DNA of 23,509 bases, from IMG/VR virus record IMGVR_UViG_2713896786_000017; one strand, written 5' to 3'. A program made the translations under genes and the position numbers. Of this stretch, positions 1 through 14,745 are shown piece after piece. The notes beneath the pieces were generated by a model. The model was given only the letters and a program-made list of their open reading frames with translations, had not been told where the DNA came from and made no database searches. This stretch comes from a virus (taxonomy: Duplodnaviria; Heunggongvirae; Uroviricota; Caudoviricetes). The first letter of the stretch is position 1; each line of letters opens with the position of its first letter.

Positions 1-869
1 CCACAAATCCACGGTACAACTGCAGCACTGCCGCCATGGCACTGCGCGTTAAATCCGGAAAGGTCAGTACGGAACTGCTTCAGCATGGCCGTGAACAGGT
101 CCGGTTGCTGTGCGTAGGTGGCAGCGCTCATGTCAAATTCGCCCTGCATCCAGCACACCGCCAGCAACACATTTTTCGGGTTCTTCTGTAATGCCGCTTT
201 GGTGCGTGCGATCAGGTCCTGATATAACGGTTTACCCACACCCCAGCGTGCCGAATCCTGGCTGGCCCCCGTGTCCGCACTGAATGTCCCCTCCGCGCCC
301 TGGGTGAATGCCGAACCACCACGACAGCATGGTACCAGCAGGATCCCCGCGTTATTCGGGATATACGGAAGCAGTTTTTTGGCAATATGTAAGCCCTGGC
401 CGACACAGCCGTACTGCCCTTTGCTCAGGTCTGCCTTCGGATGATTCAGTGCGCTCATATCCTGAACATCATGCAGGCAGTGGTCTGCCGGAATGATGTC
501 GTTAAATGCGCATGCTTTACCACCGGGAGTCACTGTGTTGCGACGGGCCAGTTGCTTAATGCGTGGGTGGGGCGCATCGTAAGAATCCGGCAGCGGCATT
601 CCATCACCATATGACATGGCATTGGATTGACCAGCAAGTACCACCACGTAATACCACTCCGGCACGCTGCCGTGCTGGGGGGAATCAGGTGAGATGTCTG
701 TAGTGCCATCGGCCACCATTGCCTGCATTAGATACCACGGGGTGCCGGGTTCGTAGGCAACCCGCGTCTCCCCCTGAAGATGCCACCCTTTCGCAAGATG
801 TTCATTCACCTTTTGAGTCAGTTCAGCCTGTGTCATGGCTGTAATCAGTGCAAAGTTCTTACTGGTCAT
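1..869 (-). CDS. nanS: Prophage NanS-p-like sialate O-acetylesterase (N-terminal extension plus SGNH/GDSL-type esterase domain); 3' end runs off the window start
   Basis: Manual minus-strand translation from ATG at 869 gives MTSKNFALITAMTQAELTQKV...YYVVVLAGQSNAMSYGDGMPLPD...PHPRIKQLARR...LLVPCCRGGSAFTQG...CWMQGEFD with no stop to position 1. GQSN esterase motif and close resemblance to E. coli NanS/YjhS as recalled. Start overlaps the Rz1-like stop (ATGA). Absent from the ORF track because no stop lies in the window. Confidence 0.8.
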   Translation of the reverse strand, partial: MTSKNFALITAMTQAELTQKVNEHLAKGWHLQGETRVAYEPGTPWYLMQAMVADGTTDISPDSPQHGSVPEWYYVVVLAGQSNAMSYGDGMPLPDSYDAPHPRIKQLARRNTVTPGGKACAFNDIIPADHCLHDVQDMSALNHPKADLSKGQYGCVGQGLHIAKKLLPYIPNNAGILLVPCCRGGSAFTQGAEGTFSADTGASQDSARWGVGKPLYQDLIARTKAALQKNPKNVLLAVCWMQGEFDMSAATYAQQPDLFTAMLKQFRTDLSGFNAQCHGGSAAVVPWIC

Positions 870-1147
870 TGTGTTACTCCCGTCTGGTGTGTCAGTTCGG
901 CTATTCTCTTATCCAGTTCAGCAATGGCCCGTTTATCCGCGTTACAGGTTTCCAGTGCATCCAGAAGGCGGTCGCCCCATATTCCGAGGTTTCCCCATGT
1001 GGGTGGGTCAGGGAAGGGGGGAGGCGTTACCGGCATGGTCAGCGTCTGCGGTATAAGCCGGACTGACGGCGCTGGCCCTGGCGCGTTCTGCGTGCCTGCG
1101 CAACCTGTCAGTAAAACGAGCGTCAGGCAAAGCGTGGGCGCATTCAT
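866..1147 (-). CDS. o-spanin (Rz1-like outer-membrane lipoprotein), overlapping the i-spanin gene
   Basis: Internal Met of track ORF 866..1261 gives MNAPTLCLTLVLLTGCAG...: signal peptide with LLTGC lipobox, then a proline-rich short mature region. Overlaps the 3' end of the Rz-like gene in another frame. Confidence 0.65.
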   Translation of the reverse strand: MNAPTLCLTLVLLTGCAGTQNAPGPAPSVRLIPQTLTMPVTPPPFPDPPTWGNLGIWGDRLLDALETCNADKRAIAELDKRIAELTHQTGVTQ

Positions 1148-1415
1148 CTTTTGCAATATCGTTGCGTAGCTGTTCACGTCTGGCCTCTCCGTCCTGATTT
1201 CGCTGTTGATTTTCCACGCGGAGTTGCGCCAGCACCTGCTGCATATCCTGTACCCCGGCACTGATGATATTCAGTGTGTCGACGGTACTTTTCAGGGTGC
1301 TGGCCTGTGCTTCGTTTCTGGCGTTCTCCCGGCCAAGCGACCATGACAGACGCATGGATGTTCCCCATGCGGCAATCAGAAGGAAAGCGACACCCAGCGT
1401 GGGCCAGAGCTTCAT
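1008..1415 (-). CDS. i-spanin (Rz-like inner-membrane lysis protein)
   Basis: Internal Met of track ORF 1008..1559 (MKLWPTLGVAFLLIAAWG...): N-terminal transmembrane segment followed by charged, Q/R-rich, probably coiled-coil region. ATG at 1415 overlaps the endolysin stop at 1412 (ATGA). Confidence 0.65.
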   Translation of the reverse strand: MKLWPTLGVAFLLIAAWGTSMRLSWSLGRENARNEAQASTLKSTVDTLNIISAGVQDMQQVLAQLRVENQQRNQDGEARREQLRNDIAKDECAHALPDARFTDRLRRHAERARASAVSPAYTADADHAGNASPLP

Positions 1416-1804
1416 GCCGGATAGGCTCCGTGTGGTAACTGAAAATGTGGTCCGTCTTTCAGGGTCTTCCAGTCGCCGCCCCATTCCACCGGAATATTCA
1501 GTTCCCGGCTGGCCTGTCTGAATGCTGCTGCGATTTTTTCGTACAGCGGCCATTCCCATGACACCTGGCTGCCAACATAAGCCACAACATCCACGGCATG
1601 CCCTGTGAGATGGCGACTGTTCATGGTCTGGCTCTTGCCTGTGGTCACGAGCTGCTTCTGACGATAACGACCGCGCAATCCTTCGGTGATACCAAAATCC
1701 ACTTCCGAGATTTCCAGCGCCCGTCGGGTCACTTTCACCAGATCAGGATTTACGCCCTGCAAATTCTTTTCGCTCCGGCTGCTGAATTTAAATGTGTTGC
1801 TCAT
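1412..1804 (-). CDS. Endolysin, peptidase M15 family (L-alanyl-D-glutamate endopeptidase-like)
   Basis: 130 aa track ORF; SRHLTGHAVDV and DGPHFQLPH fit the H..D..H zinc-binding pattern of VanY/M15 phage endolysins. Sits between holin and spanins with overlapping start/stop codons. Confidence 0.8.
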   Translation of the reverse strand: MSNTFKFSSRSEKNLQGVNPDLVKVTRRALEISEVDFGITEGLRGRYRQKQLVTTGKSQTMNSRHLTGHAVDVVAYVGSQVSWEWPLYEKIAAAFRQASRELNIPVEWGGDWKTLKDGPHFQLPHGAYPA

Positions 1805-2124
1805 TCGTCCTTCTCCTTCACCCTGCGATTAAAGGCCGCAATAACCTTGTCGCGTGCTTTCTCTGCGCCCATAAAACCGATTGATGCGCCGATAAACGTC
1901 ACGGCATCTTCAGGAAAACCGAAGAAGCGCAACGACCCGGCCACGGCCATGGCAAGAACGCCGCACGCCAGCGATCCCGTTACGGTCTGAACCAGTGTTC
2001 GTCCGTCATAAAGACTCATCAGCGCGGAAATGCTGACCGCCGCGCCTACTGCATACACCGTTGGCAGGTGGTCAAAGAGCCACGCAATAACCTGCTCTGT
2101 GATCCCTGTTTGAATGGTGCTCAC
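1801..2124 (-). CDS. Holin (three predicted transmembrane segments)
   Basis: GTG start 2 nt after the gpX stop, preceded by GGGGGAG. The 107 aa product MSTIQTGITEQVIAWLFDHLPTVYAVGAAVSISALMSLYDG... has three hydrophobic segments and a charged C-terminus. The track ORF 1801..2343 is extended in-frame upstream. Confidence 0.7.
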   Translation of the reverse strand: MSTIQTGITEQVIAWLFDHLPTVYAVGAAVSISALMSLYDGRTLVQTVTGSLACGVLAMAVAGSLRFFGFPEDAVTFIGASIGFMGAEKARDKVIAAFNRRVKEKDE

Positions 2125-2126
2125 TG

Positions 2127-2327
2127 CTACTCCCCCCACAACTGAATCATTTCTCGTTTCTTCTTCTCCGGCTCCGGCATCTCCACGTCCTGCCCGGCGT
2201 CCAGAAATACCTGCTGACAGAGTCCGGGGTTGGCATCCAGCACCTTTTCGGTGACGCCCTGCGTCGTGCCGTAGTACCGGAAACAGAGCGAATCCACGGT
2301 GTCGCCTTCCAGTGCCTTCACTTTCAT
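2127..2327 (-). CDS. X: Tail protein X (P2 gpX-like, LysM-like)
   Basis: Internal Met of track ORF 2127..2360: MKVKALEGDTVDSLCFRYYGTTQGVTEKVLDANPGLCQ...IQLWGE resembles P2 gpX as recalled. Start overlaps the gpL stop. Confidence 0.8.
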   Translation of the reverse strand: MKVKALEGDTVDSLCFRYYGTTQGVTEKVLDANPGLCQQVFLDAGQDVEMPEPEKKKREMIQLWGE

Positions 2328-2830
2328 CAGCACAACTCCGCAAAGATTCGCGGGCGGCACAGAATGTCAGAGATGGCCCAGCTCACATCGCGCCACAAAT
2401 CCGATGTCTGTATATCCAGTGCGTCCGCCCGGCGATCGCCCTTGTCCGTTGTGTCCGCATCGCGGTAACGCTCCAGAATCAGGGCACGTGTGGCGGTATA
2501 AACAGCATTGCGCCAGTGCCAGAGATTGACGCTTTCTCCGTTAATTACGGGTGCCGGAACATCGGCCAGCGTCTGATGGCCAGCCGCCTGCTGTTCCTGC
2601 TGCCACGCTTCCAGTTCGCGGGTAACGTGAGCCACAGCCCCGGTGGCAGTATGCAGCAGGCGGGAGGTGGTCACGCGGCCCGGCAGTCGTACCGCCAGAC
2701 GCAGCTCACGCAGCACAATATCCGGCCAGAATGCACCCGCTGAAATACGGGTATCACCATCATCGGTATCGGTTATGTCGTCCTCTGCGGGTCCGGGGTT
2801 GGTTCTGGCAACCATACTCATGGGGTTCAC
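2327..2830 (-). CDS. L: Head completion/stabilization protein (P2 gpL-like)
   Basis: 167 aa track ORF in the conserved P2 position between M and X; acidic, typical size. Confidence 0.7.
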   Translation of the reverse strand: MNPMSMVARTNPGPAEDDITDTDDGDTRISAGAFWPDIVLRELRLAVRLPGRVTTSRLLHTATGAVAHVTRELEAWQQEQQAAGHQTLADVPAPVINGESVNLWHWRNAVYTATRALILERYRDADTTDKGDRRADALDIQTSDLWRDVSWAISDILCRPRIFAELC

Positions 2831-2835
2831 TCCTG

Positions 2836-2907
2836 AAAAAATCGGGCGGTGGGTGCGCGGTGTAAACGGTCACGGAGTCAAACCGGAACACCGCGCACGC
2901 CGCCCGC
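2836..2907 (-). terminator. GC-rich imperfect hairpin followed by a U6 tract in the M-L intergenic spacer, immediately upstream of the L ribosome-binding site (possible attenuator)
   Basis: Plus-strand arms cgggcggtgggtgcgcggtg (about 2843..2862) and caccgcgcacgccgcccg (about 2890..2907) pair as 7+9 bp around a bulge; aaaaaa at about 2836..2841 gives UUUUUU on the minus-strand transcript. Confidence 0.35.
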
Positions 2908-2922
2908 TGACGGGGTCAGTCG

Positions 2923-3723
2923 TTAACCGCGCTTCGCCTTCTGCGTCGCGGTGGTTTTTCGTGTTGCAGGCTTCCGCGTTGTCTTTTTACTTTTGCTGCT
3001 TTCGTCCTGCGCCTGCGGTGTGCTGGCATCTTCTGGTGCGGCTGCGGAATCGGCTTTTTTCAGGGCGCGGGAAAGGGTTGCAATCTCGCGTTTCACACCT
3101 GCGTTCGGGTTCAGGTGCATTGCTTCGCGCAGCAGCTTCAGTGATGAGGCCATGCTGTCCGCATCGGTCAGGCCACGGCGGGCAAAGGCGCACGCTTTGC
3201 ATAATTTGGCGCGCACTTCGTCCGGCATGTCCTGGTTGGCGACAATCTCCCGGAGGGTGTCCAGTGGTTCGATAAAGGCGGACAAATCCGCGTCGGCATC
3301 CGTCCCGGCCTGTGTCAGTACCGGATTACAGATTTCTTCGGTCAGTACCGTGGCAGCAGTACGGCCAAAGTTATCCGGCATGATGAGGTTGTGATGGACC
3401 ACATACGCGCCGATACGCAGCGCAAGCGGAAGATCGCCACAGTCAATCGCCCACACCATCAGCGTGGCAATCACTTCATCCTGCTGCCCGCCGTCAGCTT
3501 CCAGCGTTCCCTCAATCCAGCCGGAAAAATCCGGCAACAACTCTTTTTTGATGGCGGCTTTCGCGCTTCTGGCCTGTACGCCCTTTAGTCTGGCCTGTGC
3601 CAGACGCAGACGATACAGCACCTCTTCATGCGCGGTACGCGCGGCGTGGTCCACACCTTCATTCGCCCGGCCTGCGCGCTGTGCCATCACGTTCTGCCAG
3701 TGTTGTTGTGCAGGAGTAATCAT
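2923..3723 (-). CDS. M: Terminase endonuclease (small) subunit (P2 gpM-like)
   Basis: 266 aa track ORF; DMPDEVRAKL motif and basic K/R/T-rich C-terminal tail as in P2 gpM; conserved order N-M-L. Confidence 0.85.
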   Translation of the reverse strand: MITPAQQHWQNVMAQRAGRANEGVDHAARTAHEEVLYRLRLAQARLKGVQARSAKAAIKKELLPDFSGWIEGTLEADGGQQDEVIATLMVWAIDCGDLPLALRIGAYVVHHNLIMPDNFGRTAATVLTEEICNPVLTQAGTDADADLSAFIEPLDTLREIVANQDMPDEVRAKLCKACAFARRGLTDADSMASSLKLLREAMHLNPNAGVKREIATLSRALKKADSAAAPEDASTPQAQDESSKSKKTTRKPATRKTTATQKAKRG

Positions 3724-3768
3724 TTTTTCTCTCCGTTACAGGCGGGCATGATGCCCGCCGTGAGTTGA

Positions 3769-4821
3769 TTAGCTGTCGGCGAACTTCAGGCCAGTGACCA
3801 TCGCGCACTTGCCATAGTCTTCAACGACATAAGCGTCATTGATGGACTGGTAGGTGGCGATGCGGTTGTATTCCGGCTCGTCTTTCATCAGGCGACGCAT
3901 TGAACCTTTCTGCCAGTAAATCGACAGGTTGTTGAACGAGGTGATCAGCATCGTTGCATCCGGGAAGAACGGCGCAAGGAACACGCCCAGCCCGCCAATG
4001 GTGCGCGATGACAGGATGAGCTGCCCGGCAAGTAATTCCGCATTGGGATTCTGGCCGCTGATGCTGTTCAGCACGGGCAGACGCAGCGAGTTAAACAGGT
4101 TGCGCCCCATAATCACCACGAGGTCGTCAGCTTCCTTGTGCCATTCGTCCAGCAGGGATGAGCGCGCATCCTGTACCAGAGCATCGGCATTCGCATACTT
4201 ACCCGCGTGCGCCACAGTGTTGTCCATGTTGCGGGAGGTCAGCGTCACGTCATTCATTACGCGCTCGCTGGCATCGGTTCTGATGTGCTCCAGCCAGCCC
4301 ACGTTAACGTCCTGAAGCAGCTTGTTGGTGTGAAAATCAGACTCGTAGGCGTGGGATGTGCCGTTAAAGCCAATCATGATGCGATCAAGCGCTACCTGCC
4401 GGGCGATCTGTGTACTGATACGGGACTGAAAATCGCTGTGGGCCGCCCAGGTATCAAGCTGTGGGTACGAAATAAAGGTATCGTAGTTCACCTGTTCGCA
4501 CTGGTACTGACGAGACTTCATATCGATCACGTTATTCGGGTTACGGCGTTTGATGCCGTCATAACTGCTATTCGTGCGCGCAATTGGCCCGGTGGTGTCC
4601 GGGAGGATTTTTTCGCCTTTCTGGTCGGTCACGCCGATCACGTTAATTCTTTTCGTAAATTCGGTACTTTCCTTTGAGGCGTTTTCAAAACGCTGCTGCA
4701 CCGCGGGTTCCACGGTAAATCGCGATACCAGTGCAGATACCGGGATATTGTTAAGCGACGCCTGCTGCGCCATATAGCAACCCAGCTTGTTGCGGGTAAT
4801 ATCTGACATCACCAGATTCAT
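3769..4821 (-). CDS. N: Major capsid protein (P2 gpN-like)
   Basis: 350 aa track ORF; FTVEP, IMIGFNGTS, LQDVNVGWLE, DDLVVIMGR and SIYWQKGSMRR segments parallel P2 gpN as recalled. AAGGAG lies upstream of the ATG. Confidence 0.9.
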   Translation of the reverse strand: MNLVMSDITRNKLGCYMAQQASLNNIPVSALVSRFTVEPAVQQRFENASKESTEFTKRINVIGVTDQKGEKILPDTTGPIARTNSSYDGIKRRNPNNVIDMKSRQYQCEQVNYDTFISYPQLDTWAAHSDFQSRISTQIARQVALDRIMIGFNGTSHAYESDFHTNKLLQDVNVGWLEHIRTDASERVMNDVTLTSRNMDNTVAHAGKYANADALVQDARSSLLDEWHKEADDLVVIMGRNLFNSLRLPVLNSISGQNPNAELLAGQLILSSRTIGGLGVFLAPFFPDATMLITSFNNLSIYWQKGSMRRLMKDEPEYNRIATYQSINDAYVVEDYGKCAMVTGLKFADS

Positions 4822-4844
4822 AAAAAATTTGCTCCTTTGTCTTA

Positions 4845-5681
4845 TCAGAAGTCAGCCAGCTGGTCGGAGGCTGCACCTGTTGCGGTGAACCGGTTCTGCG
4901 GATCGCCGTCCTGCGTGCGCAGTTTTTCCTTCAGTGCTGCCAGCTCTGTGGTCAGTGACGTAATTTTCTGGCGGTCCTGCTGATGGCGGGTTTCCAGCAC
5001 ATTAAAACGGTCGATAATGTCGGCCTGTGACGTTGCGACGCCTTCCACCGCTTCCTGAATACGGGAAAAACTGGCGTCATCCGCTTTGCGGCCACGGCCA
5101 ATAATCCCCATTACGTGGTTAAACCACTGGGTGCCTTCTTCCTGGCGTTGTTCTGCCATTTCGATGATTTCAGACTCGATGGCTTCGGAGATAAGCGGCG
5201 CTTCACCCTGGACACTGTTGAACGTCATTACCGCCTGACGTTGCTGTGCCGTGAATTTCAGGCGCTCAGTGCCCAGGCTTGCCGGGGTGTCGGTCATCGC
5301 CAGCCCGACCAGATAGGCGCGCCCGTTAACGGAGAACTGCGGGTGCAGTTCGATACTGGAATAGATTTTCTTGCCGTCCGCGACAAGCTGCTTCATGCGC
5401 TCGGTCGGTTCGATTTCTGCATACAGCGCAGTACGTCCGGCCAGCGGACCTTCCGTAATGTCTTCCGTACTCAGTGCGGTGACATCGCCCATTGCGGAAA
5501 ATTCGCTTGACGGGCATGGCGAGAGATAGTGCTCAACGTTCACGCGGGCAGCGTAAACATCCGGGTTGAAGTTCTCGGCGGCTTCACGCAGATGCACCGG
5601 ACTGATTTCACGGCCATCAACAGTTGATCCGGAGACAGCCACGCGAAACTTTTTGCGGGATGTCTTTTTTTCATTAGCCAT
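4845..5681 (-). CDS. O: Capsid scaffolding protein (P2 gpO-like)
   Basis: Internal Met of track ORF 4845..5714 (MANEKKTSRKKFRVAVSGSTVDGREIS...) chosen because GAGGGG lies 9 nt upstream; LVGLAMTDTPASLGTE resembles P2 gpO. Confidence 0.85.
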   Translation of the reverse strand: MANEKKTSRKKFRVAVSGSTVDGREISPVHLREAAENFNPDVYAARVNVEHYLSPCPSSEFSAMGDVTALSTEDITEGPLAGRTALYAEIEPTERMKQLVADGKKIYSSIELHPQFSVNGRAYLVGLAMTDTPASLGTERLKFTAQQRQAVMTFNSVQGEAPLISEAIESEIIEMAEQRQEEGTQWFNHVMGIIGRGRKADDASFSRIQEAVEGVATSQADIIDRFNVLETRHQQDRQKITSLTTELAALKEKLRTQDGDPQNRFTATGAASDQLADF

Positions 5682-9860: not shown

Positions 9861-10175
9861 TCACTCTGGGAAAAATGACTGAATGTTCTTTCTTATCTCG
9901 CTAGTGCTGTGATTGCTTCCGGTGGCAGGTGCGCTGGCATATTTACTCTGAATATTATTCTTGGCTGGCGCAGCTCCTTCTTCCGGCCATTCGGCCAACC
10001 AATAGGCAAATGCAGGATCGCGTTTTATGAGTGCCAGCCCGGCCAGAAAGGCCGCGCGTTGCGCGCGGCTGCGTTCAGAGGCTGGCAGGCTGTCGAGGTA
10101 ATTACACGCCTCCCGTTCACTATTGACGGCGACTGGCTTCAGATAGAAACTTATCCGTCTGGTTGGTGTCGTCAT
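9861..10175 (-). CDS. parR: ParR-like DNA-binding adaptor of a type II (actin-type) partition system
   Basis: Internal Met of track ORF 9861..10310, 5 nt after the ParM-like stop, with AAGGAG overlapping that stop. MTTPTRRISFYLKPVAVNSEREACNYLDSLPASERSRAQRAAFLAGLALIKRDP parallels the N-terminal half of plasmid R1 ParR as recalled. Confidence 0.7.
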   Translation of the reverse strand: MTTPTRRISFYLKPVAVNSEREACNYLDSLPASERSRAQRAAFLAGLALIKRDPAFAYWLAEWPEEGAAPAKNNIQSKYASAPATGSNHSTSEIRKNIQSFFPE

Positions 10176-10179
10176 TGGT

Positions 10180-11139
10180 TTACTCCTTGTCCATTGCGTA
10201 CAGCCCATTAACCAGAGCAAACTGTGGCACCCCGTCCGCGATGAAAGTCGCATTAACTCCGCAGGCTTCGCGGATAGCGGGTGCCACAATCTCCGTCCCA
10301 CCACCGACAACCATCACCCGCCCGTAACCCGAAAAACCCGCCAGCGCGCGGATCACGCGTTGTTTCAGTGTTTCTTCCTTTTCACGAATAACCGCCATCA
10401 GGCTGGCGTAATGCGCGTCATTGTGGATGTGCTGGCGCAGCCAGGCTTCATCATGGCGATGTTCGATAATGGTATTGGCGATGTGGTGACTGGTGCGCAT
10501 ACCGTTAGTGGCCATCACCGACAGTACGGCATCGGCCATCAGAGAAACGCCTACGTGTGGATCGCAAAACACCTGGCTGATACCTGCCAGTTGCCCCTGA
10601 ACCTTTGCCACATCCAGCGTGGTTCCGCCCAAATCCACAATCAGCAGGGATTCAAACGGACTCATGTCAGCCAGTGCCTTAAAGCCAGCCGGAATGGATT
10701 CAGGCATAACCCGTACGTTACGGATAGTGAATGCTTCGCCGTTCTGGTACTCCACCGGGCGCATAACGTTCGCTTTTTTGCGGTTGATATTGGTCATGTC
10801 CGGCTGTGCGTTTGTGTCGAAATACTCGCTCAGTGGCAGGGTGACAACCACATCCACCTCCTGTGGTGTGATGCCTGATTTGACCAGCGCGTGATGAATG
10901 GCAATGACATTCACATCGCTGTATTGGTATTGCGTGTCGGTCGTCTGGACAAAGCGATCGCTGACCGGATCAAAACCATAGCGCACGCCATCAAGCATGT
11001 AGTTCGCGGGCTGCGTGCCACCGAACGGCGCAGACCATTCCGACTTGAAGCTGTTCGGGCTGATGGCGTTGCGGCGTTCGCCGTTCTCAGTCCATGCCAG
11101 CTTGATGTTGGTGGAGCCGTCGTCGATACAAATTTTCAT
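10180..11139 (-). CDS. parM: ParM/StbA-like actin-fold ATPase
   Basis: 319 aa track ORF. MKICIDDGSTNIKLAW, ISPNSFK, YQYSDVNVIAIHHAL, VMPESIPAGF, DLGGTTLDV and VVGGGTEIV parallel plasmid R1 ParM motifs as recalled. Confidence 0.85.
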   Translation of the reverse strand: MKICIDDGSTNIKLAWTENGERRNAISPNSFKSEWSAPFGGTQPANYMLDGVRYGFDPVSDRFVQTTDTQYQYSDVNVIAIHHALVKSGITPQEVDVVVTLPLSEYFDTNAQPDMTNINRKKANVMRPVEYQNGEAFTIRNVRVMPESIPAGFKALADMSPFESLLIVDLGGTTLDVAKVQGQLAGISQVFCDPHVGVSLMADAVLSVMATNGMRTSHHIANTIIEHRHDEAWLRQHIHNDAHYASLMAVIREKEETLKQRVIRALAGFSGYGRVMVVGGGTEIVAPAIREACGVNATFIADGVPQFALVNGLYAMDKE

Positions 11140-14514: not shown

Positions 14515-14745
14515 TTAATGGAGTTTGTTTTGCTGCTGGATGAGCTGTTGAAGCTCGTGCAGATCATCCGCCAGATAGCTGAAAACAGAGGCGGAATAAA
14601 TGTTTGATAGTGCGTGGCTGCGCTCATGCAGCATATTGATGTGCATGATTTGCGCGACGCGTGATGCGCGGTAAAGTCTGCGGTTGATTTCAGTCTGGAT
14701 GTGACGACGCGCAGCGTATGCGCGCTGTTGTTTGCGGTTTGCCAT
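14515..14745 (-). CDS. Hypothetical small basic protein (76 aa)
   Basis: Track ORF with ACGAGG 8 nt upstream of the ATG; arginine-rich helical N-terminus. An overlapping 205 aa ORF in another frame was rejected. Confidence 0.4.
   Translation of the reverse strand: MANRKQQRAYAARRHIQTEINRRLYRASRVAQIMHINMLHERSHALSNIYSASVFSYLADDLHELQQLIQQQNKLH

Follow-up and report, generated by a model that had tools for sequence, protein, structure and literature searches.

A nanS-p gene at the start of the window

The window analysed here is the whole of the 23,509-nucleotide (nt) IMG/VR record IMGVR_UViG_2713896786_000017 (Caudoviricetes), and the subject of this study is nanS-p, the gene with which it begins. 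Positions 1-869 (-) form a single open frame of 289 codons, which starts with an ATG at 869-867 and runs past the window start; no support was found for the short plus-strand open reading frames (ORFs; up to 64 amino acids (aa)) in the same interval. The first 3 kb of the window were compared with the chromosomes of Escherichia coli O104:H4 outbreak isolates and were 100% identical to those of 2011C-3493, C227-11, HUSEC2011 and others. The full gene was thereby retrieved: in NC_018658.1 (L001:18989-20869; O3K_RS11555) it is an uninterrupted 1881-nt ORF, with neither frameshift nor stop in the remaining 1012 nt, and it encodes a 626-aa protein (WP_000202135.1; 'DUF6645 domain-containing protein' in RefSeq), of which the window (1..869 (-)) holds codons 1-289. 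After the stop, 23 nt lead to gpR and gpS, which are followed by V-W-J-I-H-G.

In the truncated product, Pfam matched DUF1737 with 30 bits (cutoff 24) over aa 4-53 and SASA with 52 bits (cutoff 24.8) over aa 75-271, and the full protein scored 30.5 bits for DUF1737 (PF08410), 49 bits for SASA and 70 bits for DUF6645 (PF20350), all above the gathering cutoffs. The N-terminal domain (N-domain; aa 1-55; 705..869 (-)) covers profile positions 2-52 of the 53 in PF08410 and, judged from this match, the predicted fold and clade analysis, belongs to a lineage specific to P2-family phages. It is followed by a flexible linker (aa 56-69, TTDISPDSPQHGSV; 663..704 (-)), which differs among alleles in P2 context, and by a NanS-like SGNH/SASA esterase domain (aa 70-390), the first two thirds of which (aa 70-289) occupy 1..662 (-). 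The esterase region (aa 69-388) aligned with the crystal-structure sequence of NanS (YjhS), 3PT5, at 57.6% identity (E=2.8e-123), and the C-terminal region (aa 431-623) with 6YP6, the solved lectin-like C-terminal domain of a NanS-p (E=3.9e-30). Both catalytic positions are conserved: Ser82 of the GQSN motif (624-626 (-)) aligns with Ser30 of the 3PT5 chain, and His368, which lies outside the window, with His312. Given an 11-residue tag offset, this chain numbering fits Ser19 and His301, presumably the catalytic pair of NanS and reportedly the residue numbers used by Rangarajan et al. in 2011.

Structure was predicted with AlphaFold2 for a 95%-identical cluster representative, from a 30-sequence alignment. 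The N-domain was modelled as a strand (residues 5-11), a helix (14-26) and two further strands (29-38 and 46-53), with a predicted local distance difference test score (pLDDT) of 72-84; the score fell below 50 from residue 56, at the linker. The C-terminal domain was modelled as a beta-sandwich (pLDDT 80-90), and the esterase domain was modelled poorly from the shallow alignment (mean pLDDT 63).

On sequence evidence the protein is a bona fide NanS-p, built of a DUF1737 domain, a NanS-like SGNH/SASA esterase and a lectin-like jelly-roll. The initial annotation, which had proposed a NanS-like SGNH esterase with an N-terminal extension instead of a P2 tail-completion gene, was thus sound on this point: sequence comparison returned 3PT5 and 6YP6, and a divergent tail-completion gene was ruled out, gpR and gpS being intact downstream. 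A peptidoglycan de-O-acetylase that aids lysis was also considered and was ruled out, as nothing supported it and identity to sialate esterases is high; to our knowledge, E. coli peptidoglycan is not O-acetylated. Chromosomal NanS is a single-domain enzyme of the nanCMS operon and is exported via a signal peptide, whereas the phage protein has a DUF1737 and a lectin domain in addition and would depend on lysis for its release.

Translational coupling to lysC within the late operon

The start of nanS-p and the stop of lysC, which encodes an Rz1-like outer-membrane spanin (866..1147 (-); Pfam PF23793), overlap in the sequence ATGA (866..869 (-)). The lysC TGA lies at 868-866, and the 4-nt overlap, which had been noticed in the initial annotation, is a signature of translational coupling. 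A Shine-Dalgarno sequence, GGGAG (877..881 (-)), is found within the lysC coding sequence 7 nt before the nanS-p ATG, and a new ribosome-binding site for gpR was supplied along with the nanS-p insertion. No sigma-70 promoter or intrinsic terminator of its own was found to bracket nanS-p in the 4 kb scanned, where two promoter-like and four terminator-like sites compare with 2.1 and 3.8 expected from shuffled sequences. Among the same-strand genes upstream of the lysis cassette (2127..5681), terminator-like signals likewise did not rise above chance.

The gene is thus an integrated late gene that is translationally coupled to lysC. A classical autonomous moron was ruled out, since there is no flanking promoter or terminator and the start is coupled to lysC. 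Known cargo of the P2 family (old, tin and Z/fun, and cdt-V in P2-like prophages) is likewise accessory and non-essential, yet it occupies other hot spots and is usually transcribed autonomously in the lysogen, whereas nanS-p is embedded in the late operon.

The gene order is O-N-M-L-X-holin-endolysin-Rz/Rz1-nanS-p-R-S-V-W-J-I-H-G, so the setting directly after Rz/Rz1 in a P2-family late operon had been read correctly. lysC is embedded in the gene of the Rz-like inner-membrane spanin (DUF2570; 1008..1415 (-)) and reaches beyond its end. An in-frame ATG at 1147, 21 nt upstream of the CTG start in RefSeq (1126), creates a canonical lipobox signal, MNAPTLCLTLVLLTG|C, and seems preferable as the start of lysC. 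Upstream follow, as assigned by Pfam and RefSeq context, an M15 metallopeptidase endolysin (1412..1804 (-)), a holin (Phage_holin_3_1; 1801..2124 (-)) and gpX, gpL, gpM, gpN (the P2-family major capsid protein) and gpO (2127..5681 (-)).

A P2-family prophage with and without nanS-p

The host element, a P2-family (P88-like) prophage, lies between ihfA and btuC in the E. coli O104:H4 chromosome NC_018658.1 and has a full P2-family layout: Q and P are divergent from O-N-M-L-X, after which come the lysis genes, R/S, baseplate and fibre genes, ogr, an integrase and a gpA-type replication endonuclease. Markers of a P2-family late operon include the Pfam matches Phage_GPL, Phage_tail_X and LysC, a GPO scaffold and a P2-family capsid, and the nearest isolated phage is classed in Peduoviridae.

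Of the 5,426 complete E. coli genomes, 687 matched, without a break, a synthetic query in which the end of lysC was joined to the start of gpR; in O145:H28 RM12581, for instance, the two genes overlap directly. The occupied 3-kb arrangement was present in about 375 complete E. coli genomes. nanS-p matches as such occur in 4,366 E. coli genomes. From these alignments nanS-p is read as an insertion that separates lysC from gpR in part of one phage lineage. The O104-type N-domain was found on 26 IMG/VR contigs, all of which carry the same neighbours, a gpN that is 98-100% identical and the lysis cassette, with gpR/gpS next to nanS-p wherever the contig reaches far enough. The insertion is also carried by three Peduoviridae records of the phage collection (vB_EcoM-705R2, vB_EcoM-569R5 and a P88-like ST131 prophage); two scans of species-representative genomes found nothing.

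Domain mosaic relative to lambdoid alleles

The lambdoid siphovirus-type alleles of YYZ-2008 (ACI32378), E2348/69 (WP_000874861) and O157:H7 (WP_137330374) share with the O104 allele the three-domain architecture and a place in a late operon beside the lysis cassette. They differ in belonging to lambdoid elements, in an N-domain that lacks a 4-residue insertion and in gene position, after Q/tRNA/stx and before the holin. The order Q-(tRNAs/stx)-nanS-p-(DUF1378, DUF826)-holin-endolysin-Rz was found in five of five lambdoid contexts (E2348/69, O157:H7, Stx2 phage P13374, Stx1 phage YYZ-2008 and one further contig). The initial annotation had placed lambdoid NanS-p genes downstream of the lysis genes and the present gene in the same relative position; in fact they lie upstream of the holin in every lambdoid context examined, and the P2-type gene lies downstream of the lysis cassette. 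As the two occupy opposite sides of the cassette, what they have in common is only adjacency to lysis genes and membership in the late transcript. Gene position is a matter of custom and does not enter into how the NanS-p protein family is defined.

Identity between the O104 allele and the three siphovirus-type alleles differs sharply by domain. It is 88-89% in the esterase and 84-93% in the lectin domain, yet merely 33-35% in the N-domain, which also differs by the 4-residue insertion and the linker; at the DNA level, blastn homology to lambdoid copies begins only at nt 207 of the gene. Of the 'convergent or modular acquisition' suggested initially, the modular part is borne out by this contrast between the body and the N-domain, the latter being about 26-35% identical to lambdoid ones, and the convergent part is not, the domains being homologous and recombining. 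Within P2-context alleles, the backbone of which is >99% identical, nucleotide identity in the esterase segment is ~99% for some alleles and ~86.7% for others, with intermediates, and the N-domain DNA is identical. Such a pattern is the mark of gene conversion, with other nanS-p copies of the same cell as donors of the homologous body.

A more distant group is formed by phi24B gp84/vb_24B_21 and 933W L0105 (z1466), compared here as P13374 YP_006906864. Family, domain order and predicted DUF1737 fold are shared, as is the match to 6YP6, and identity to the O104 allele is 53% overall (22% in the N-domain, 70% in the esterase and 37% in the C-terminal domain).

N-domain lineages across phage families

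A search seeded with a 56%-identical N-domain identified further P2-family prophages of E. coli (P0088/L035/L050, L039, L041 and P0103/L057). Their gpN is ~62% identical and their lysis is of the lysozyme type instead of the M15 peptidase type, and they carry a 642-656-aa nanS-p at the same lysC/gpR site with an N-domain of the P2-type clade. At least five P2-family lineages thus hold nanS-p at this site. Across the four lineages that were aligned, the N-domains form a clade of 55-100% identity and are 22-39% identical to lambdoid N-domains. The N-domains of the other P2 lineages are 55-73% identical to that of O104; their esterases (67-71%) and lectin domains (31-39%) group apart from those of O104, and one lectin domain is nearest to the Stx2-phage type. 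The O104 esterase/lectin body groups with lambdoid alleles.

The two of these loci that have gene calls, L050:5602-7801 (E. coli EC2) and L057:8001-10257, show the order lysC - nanS-p - DUF1378 - gpR. The extra DUF1378 gene is present as in Stx phages and absent from the O104 arrangement, and its being carried along suggests that a block of several genes passed from one phage family to another.

Two proteins were picked blindly by N-domain motif alone. The pick with a P2-type motif (P0103) proved to come from a fifth P2-family prophage, where LysC and DUF1378-gpR flank it at the same site, and the pick with a lambdoid-type motif (P0081) between Q and the holin. A third class consists of a 682-aa NanS-p homologue in Mu-like prophages of E. 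coli (P0124; L052:10001-12049, also L053 and L054), which has SASA and DUF6645 without DUF1737 and an N-domain of ~115 aa with no Pfam match. Its gene comes after a tail-fibre assembly gene/invertase, and next downstream lie DUF1378, DUF826 and a com/DNA-methylase (mom-like) pair. Across these alignments the sequence of the N-domain appears to track phage family and not the esterase body.

A phmmer search of the N-domain against 1.8 billion representatives gave 10 matches, mostly stand-alone DUF1737 proteins of 54-87 aa, for which no genomic contexts were found in IMG/VR. A short-query protein search with the N-domain gave only truncated fragments of the same protein.

The five alleles of O104:H4

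According to a review, five NanS-p of O104:H4 have been analysed previously, and all were active esterases that supported growth on 5-N-acetyl-9-O-acetylneuraminic acid (Neu5,9Ac2) (PMC8065619; also PMC10462455). The DNA of the esterase domain matched exactly five places per outbreak genome, and four places in an O104:H4-like strain with one copy fewer. In 2011C-3493 the chromosomal fim-nanCMS region is deleted, gntP being followed by a fimH remnant, IS1 and then fecI. With five esterase places and no chromosomal nanS, all five copies must therefore be phage-borne, the P2 locus being one of them; O104:H4 lacks chromosomal nanS and is wholly reliant on phage-borne copies. The protein has very probably been characterized already as one of the five studied alleles, a membership that follows from copy counts. 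In place of the fim operon and nanC-nanM-nanS, the chromosome carries an IS1-bounded island (L056:34193-49259; NC_018658.1 4.534-4.549 Mb).

The novelty implied at first is lower than it seemed, as the outbreak strain has been studied intensively and its five nanS-p alleles have been reported active. In the literature searched, no link of nanS-p to P2-like phages was found. Both the recurrent, precise integration of nanS-p in the late regions of P2-family (and Mu-like) phages and the phage-family-specific N-terminal module of NanS-p appear not to have been described before.

These reports also bear on the substrate. In place of mucin sialic acids, the true substrate might be a glycan of the bacterial surface, such as O-acetylated O-antigen, K1-type polysialic acid or colanic acid, the esterase then serving phage adsorption or release instead of host nutrition. 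This idea, raised by a review for NanS-p in general (PMC8065619), would be in keeping with a hexapeptide-repeat O-acetyltransferase-like moron by the tail-fibre genes of the same prophage. We consider it very improbable: the protein is 58% identical to NanS and 84-93% identical to lambdoid alleles reported active on Neu5,9Ac2 and mucin glycans, no evidence for a surface-glycan substrate was found, and the acetyltransferase scores below every curated family cutoff. The latter (L001:12193-12765; 190 aa) is EpsC/WcaB/CysE-like and adjoins the tail-fibre assembly gene, so that the prophage holds both a putative polysaccharide O-acetyltransferase and an O-acetylesterase.

Proposed role of the prophage-borne esterase

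What was found above on the protein and its domains, the site of the gene, its coupling signals, its spread among genomes and its mosaic make-up is best explained if nanS-p is an intact, prophage-borne gene for a 9-O-acetyl-sialic-acid esterase, located in the late operon and coupled to lysC, the product of which is released at lysis and the body of which has recombined with lambdoid copies; we hold this explanation with considerable confidence. That the O104:H4 alleles are active enzymes and benefit growth is taken from the literature, and late-only expression and release at lysis are what we infer from the operon structure, P2 biology and published work on NanS-p.

With no promoter or terminator of its own and with its start coupled to lysC, nanS-p would be translated only upon late gene expression of the prophage. 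The protein has no signal peptide because its N-terminus is a folded domain, and release is therefore attributed to the adjacent lysis system, in which the holin, endolysin and spanins would free it from the cell. Outside the cell, NanS-p would strip O-acetyl groups from mucin sialic acids, converting Neu5,9Ac2 to N-acetylneuraminic acid (Neu5Ac), which surviving sibling lysogens could catabolize; the cost of this public good would fall on the spontaneously induced cells. The body of esterase and lectin has been swapped by homologous recombination with lambdoid nanS-p, the N-domain lineage being confined to P2-family phages. NanS-p esterases enable pathogenic E. coli to feed on O-acetylated sialic acids of gut mucus, and have so far been discussed almost solely as cargo of lambdoid, especially Stx, phages. 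As a regular and precisely integrated late gene in several P2-family lineages, and present also in Mu-like prophages, nanS-p points to a wider reservoir of these fitness genes.

Several observations weigh against this explanation. The tail segment FI-FII-E-E'-T-U of the O104:H4 prophage is inverted relative to G and D (L001:2241-12765), gpD is cut to 801 nt, and the stretch from gpD to ogr has taken up ISKpn26 (IS5-family) and a DUF3800 gene. Tail assembly is probably defective in this prophage, which may not finish its lytic cycle even though ogr and the lysis genes are intact. In the P/O intergenic region no exact Ogr-type site (TGT-N12-ACA) was found, and in the window this pattern occurs at chance frequency; dependence on Ogr is presumed from P2. 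In some same-phage IMG/VR contigs, nanS-p is damaged by frameshifts near aa 191-204 (L012) and at aa 266 (L030), or by an in-frame-looking internal deletion of aa ~198-525 (L022 and L027). Finally, the sources are slightly inconsistent, as the review assigns the five alleles to a Stx-phage-cured derivative (PMC8065619), for which the present count would leave four.

Some of these observations would suit a passive passenger, that is, a lambdoid nanS-p fragment that landed by illegitimate recombination at a permissive site between genes and hitch-hikes with no role for the phage, little for the host and a vestigial N-domain. The 687 genomes with close phage relatives devoid of nanS-p, the frameshifted and internally deleted copies and the apparently defective state of the O104:H4 prophage itself all agree with such an origin, as does base composition, with GC and third-position GC (GC3) of nanS-p indistinguishable from the flanks and bearing no foreign mark. 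Yet the ORF is intact at most loci and is present in ~375 complete genomes; at least five P2-family lineages, unlike one another in capsid and lysis genes, have retained nanS-p at this site along with a conserved P2-type N-domain; the start is coupled to lysC and gpR has a new ribosome-binding site; and the O104:H4 alleles are reported to be active and to confer growth on Neu5,9Ac2 (PMC8065619). A mere passenger is therefore improbable, and an intact, lysis-released sialate esterase remains the preferred explanation.

Possible anchoring to the capsid

The esterase explanation can be extended. In a 2026 preprint on cryo-electron microscopy and proteomics, the DUF1737 domain of phi24B gp84 formed a capsid-decorating hexamer and the protein was autoprocessed; both properties have been shown for phi24B alone. 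By analogy, NanS-p of the P2-family prophage might also be a virion component, its P2-specific DUF1737 domain docking on gpN hexamers and displaying, or shedding by autoprocessing, a mucin-sialic-acid esterase and lectin that would aid the phage in binding, traversing or leaving mucus. We regard this as tentative and somewhat doubtful.

In its favour, besides the capsid decoration by the phi24B homologue, the strand-helix-strand-strand fold predicted for the N-domain agrees with the small helix and three antiparallel strands of the preprint. The N-domain tracks phage family, as the blind picks P0103 and P0081 confirmed, Mu-like prophages use a different, non-DUF1737 N-domain, and nanS-p lies inside a structural late operon. 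Lineages specific to phage families fit a docking role, without being proof of it, and argue against a vestigial domain.

Against it, on a T=9 facet of phi24B the domain occupies no hexon but the one at the 3-fold axis. By icosahedral geometry, the T=7 capsid of P2 should lack such a hexon, P2-family phages being T=7 myoviruses and phi24B a T=9 podovirus. Moreover, N-domain and capsid are not strictly matched: lambdoid prophages L003/L051 and L007 carry NanS-p N-domains that are 100% identical with head modules that are unrelated. One module is of lambda type, with a Nu1/A terminase, an S49 protease, a gpD-like decoration protein and a gpE-like capsid; in the other (YYZ-2008 type, HK97-type) a fused protease-capsid protein accompanies an HNH/terminase module. 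The constancy of the N-domain in the P2a lineage carries no information here and was dismissed as a sign of selection, as the whole backbone is ~99% identical; it is put down to the want of recombination partners, the N-domain having no DNA homology to lambdoid copies. In the anchor loop, where the alignment is ambiguous, the P2 type has Y39, W45 and Y46 against the aromatic 'tooth' Tyr42 of the phi24B type, and the linker after the N-domain reads DISPDSP against the SISSPEEP of a Stx2 phage, compared for an SSP-type autoprocessing motif.

More broadly, NanS-p proteins could be modular, capsid-anchored mucus enzymes, in which the N-domain (P2-type DUF1737, lambdoid DUF1737 or the ~115-aa Mu-like domain) serves as a family-specific dock and the esterase and lectin are exchanged between families. 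We think this generalization unlikely as matters stand. Were it true, the product of the O104:H4 gene would be the first known decoration protein of a P2-family (T=7 myovirus) capsid, and temperate coliphages that live in mucus would make general use of virions displaying sialic-acid esterases. The lineages described here provide a comparative handle on the recent claim of a DUF1737 capsid anchor. If that claim holds for P2-type phages, it implies an unrecognized virion component in a very well-studied phage family and would link 'host nutrition' genes of prophages to the behaviour of phages in mucus.

Other features of the prophage

A small gene at 14515-14745 (-) is annotated 'derepression protein', which we take to resemble the 186 Tum / P4 epsilon type; judging by this annotation, the prophage could differ from P2 in being inducible. 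Between the replication gene A and the portal region, at 9861-11139 (-), lie the genes of a ParM-like segregation ATPase and of a small partition/stability protein, a pair that vB_EcoM-705R2 has as well. When gpN (3769-4821) was compared with that of one empty-site relative (L034:2347-3399), 14 of 350 residues differed, all of them within aa 74-164.

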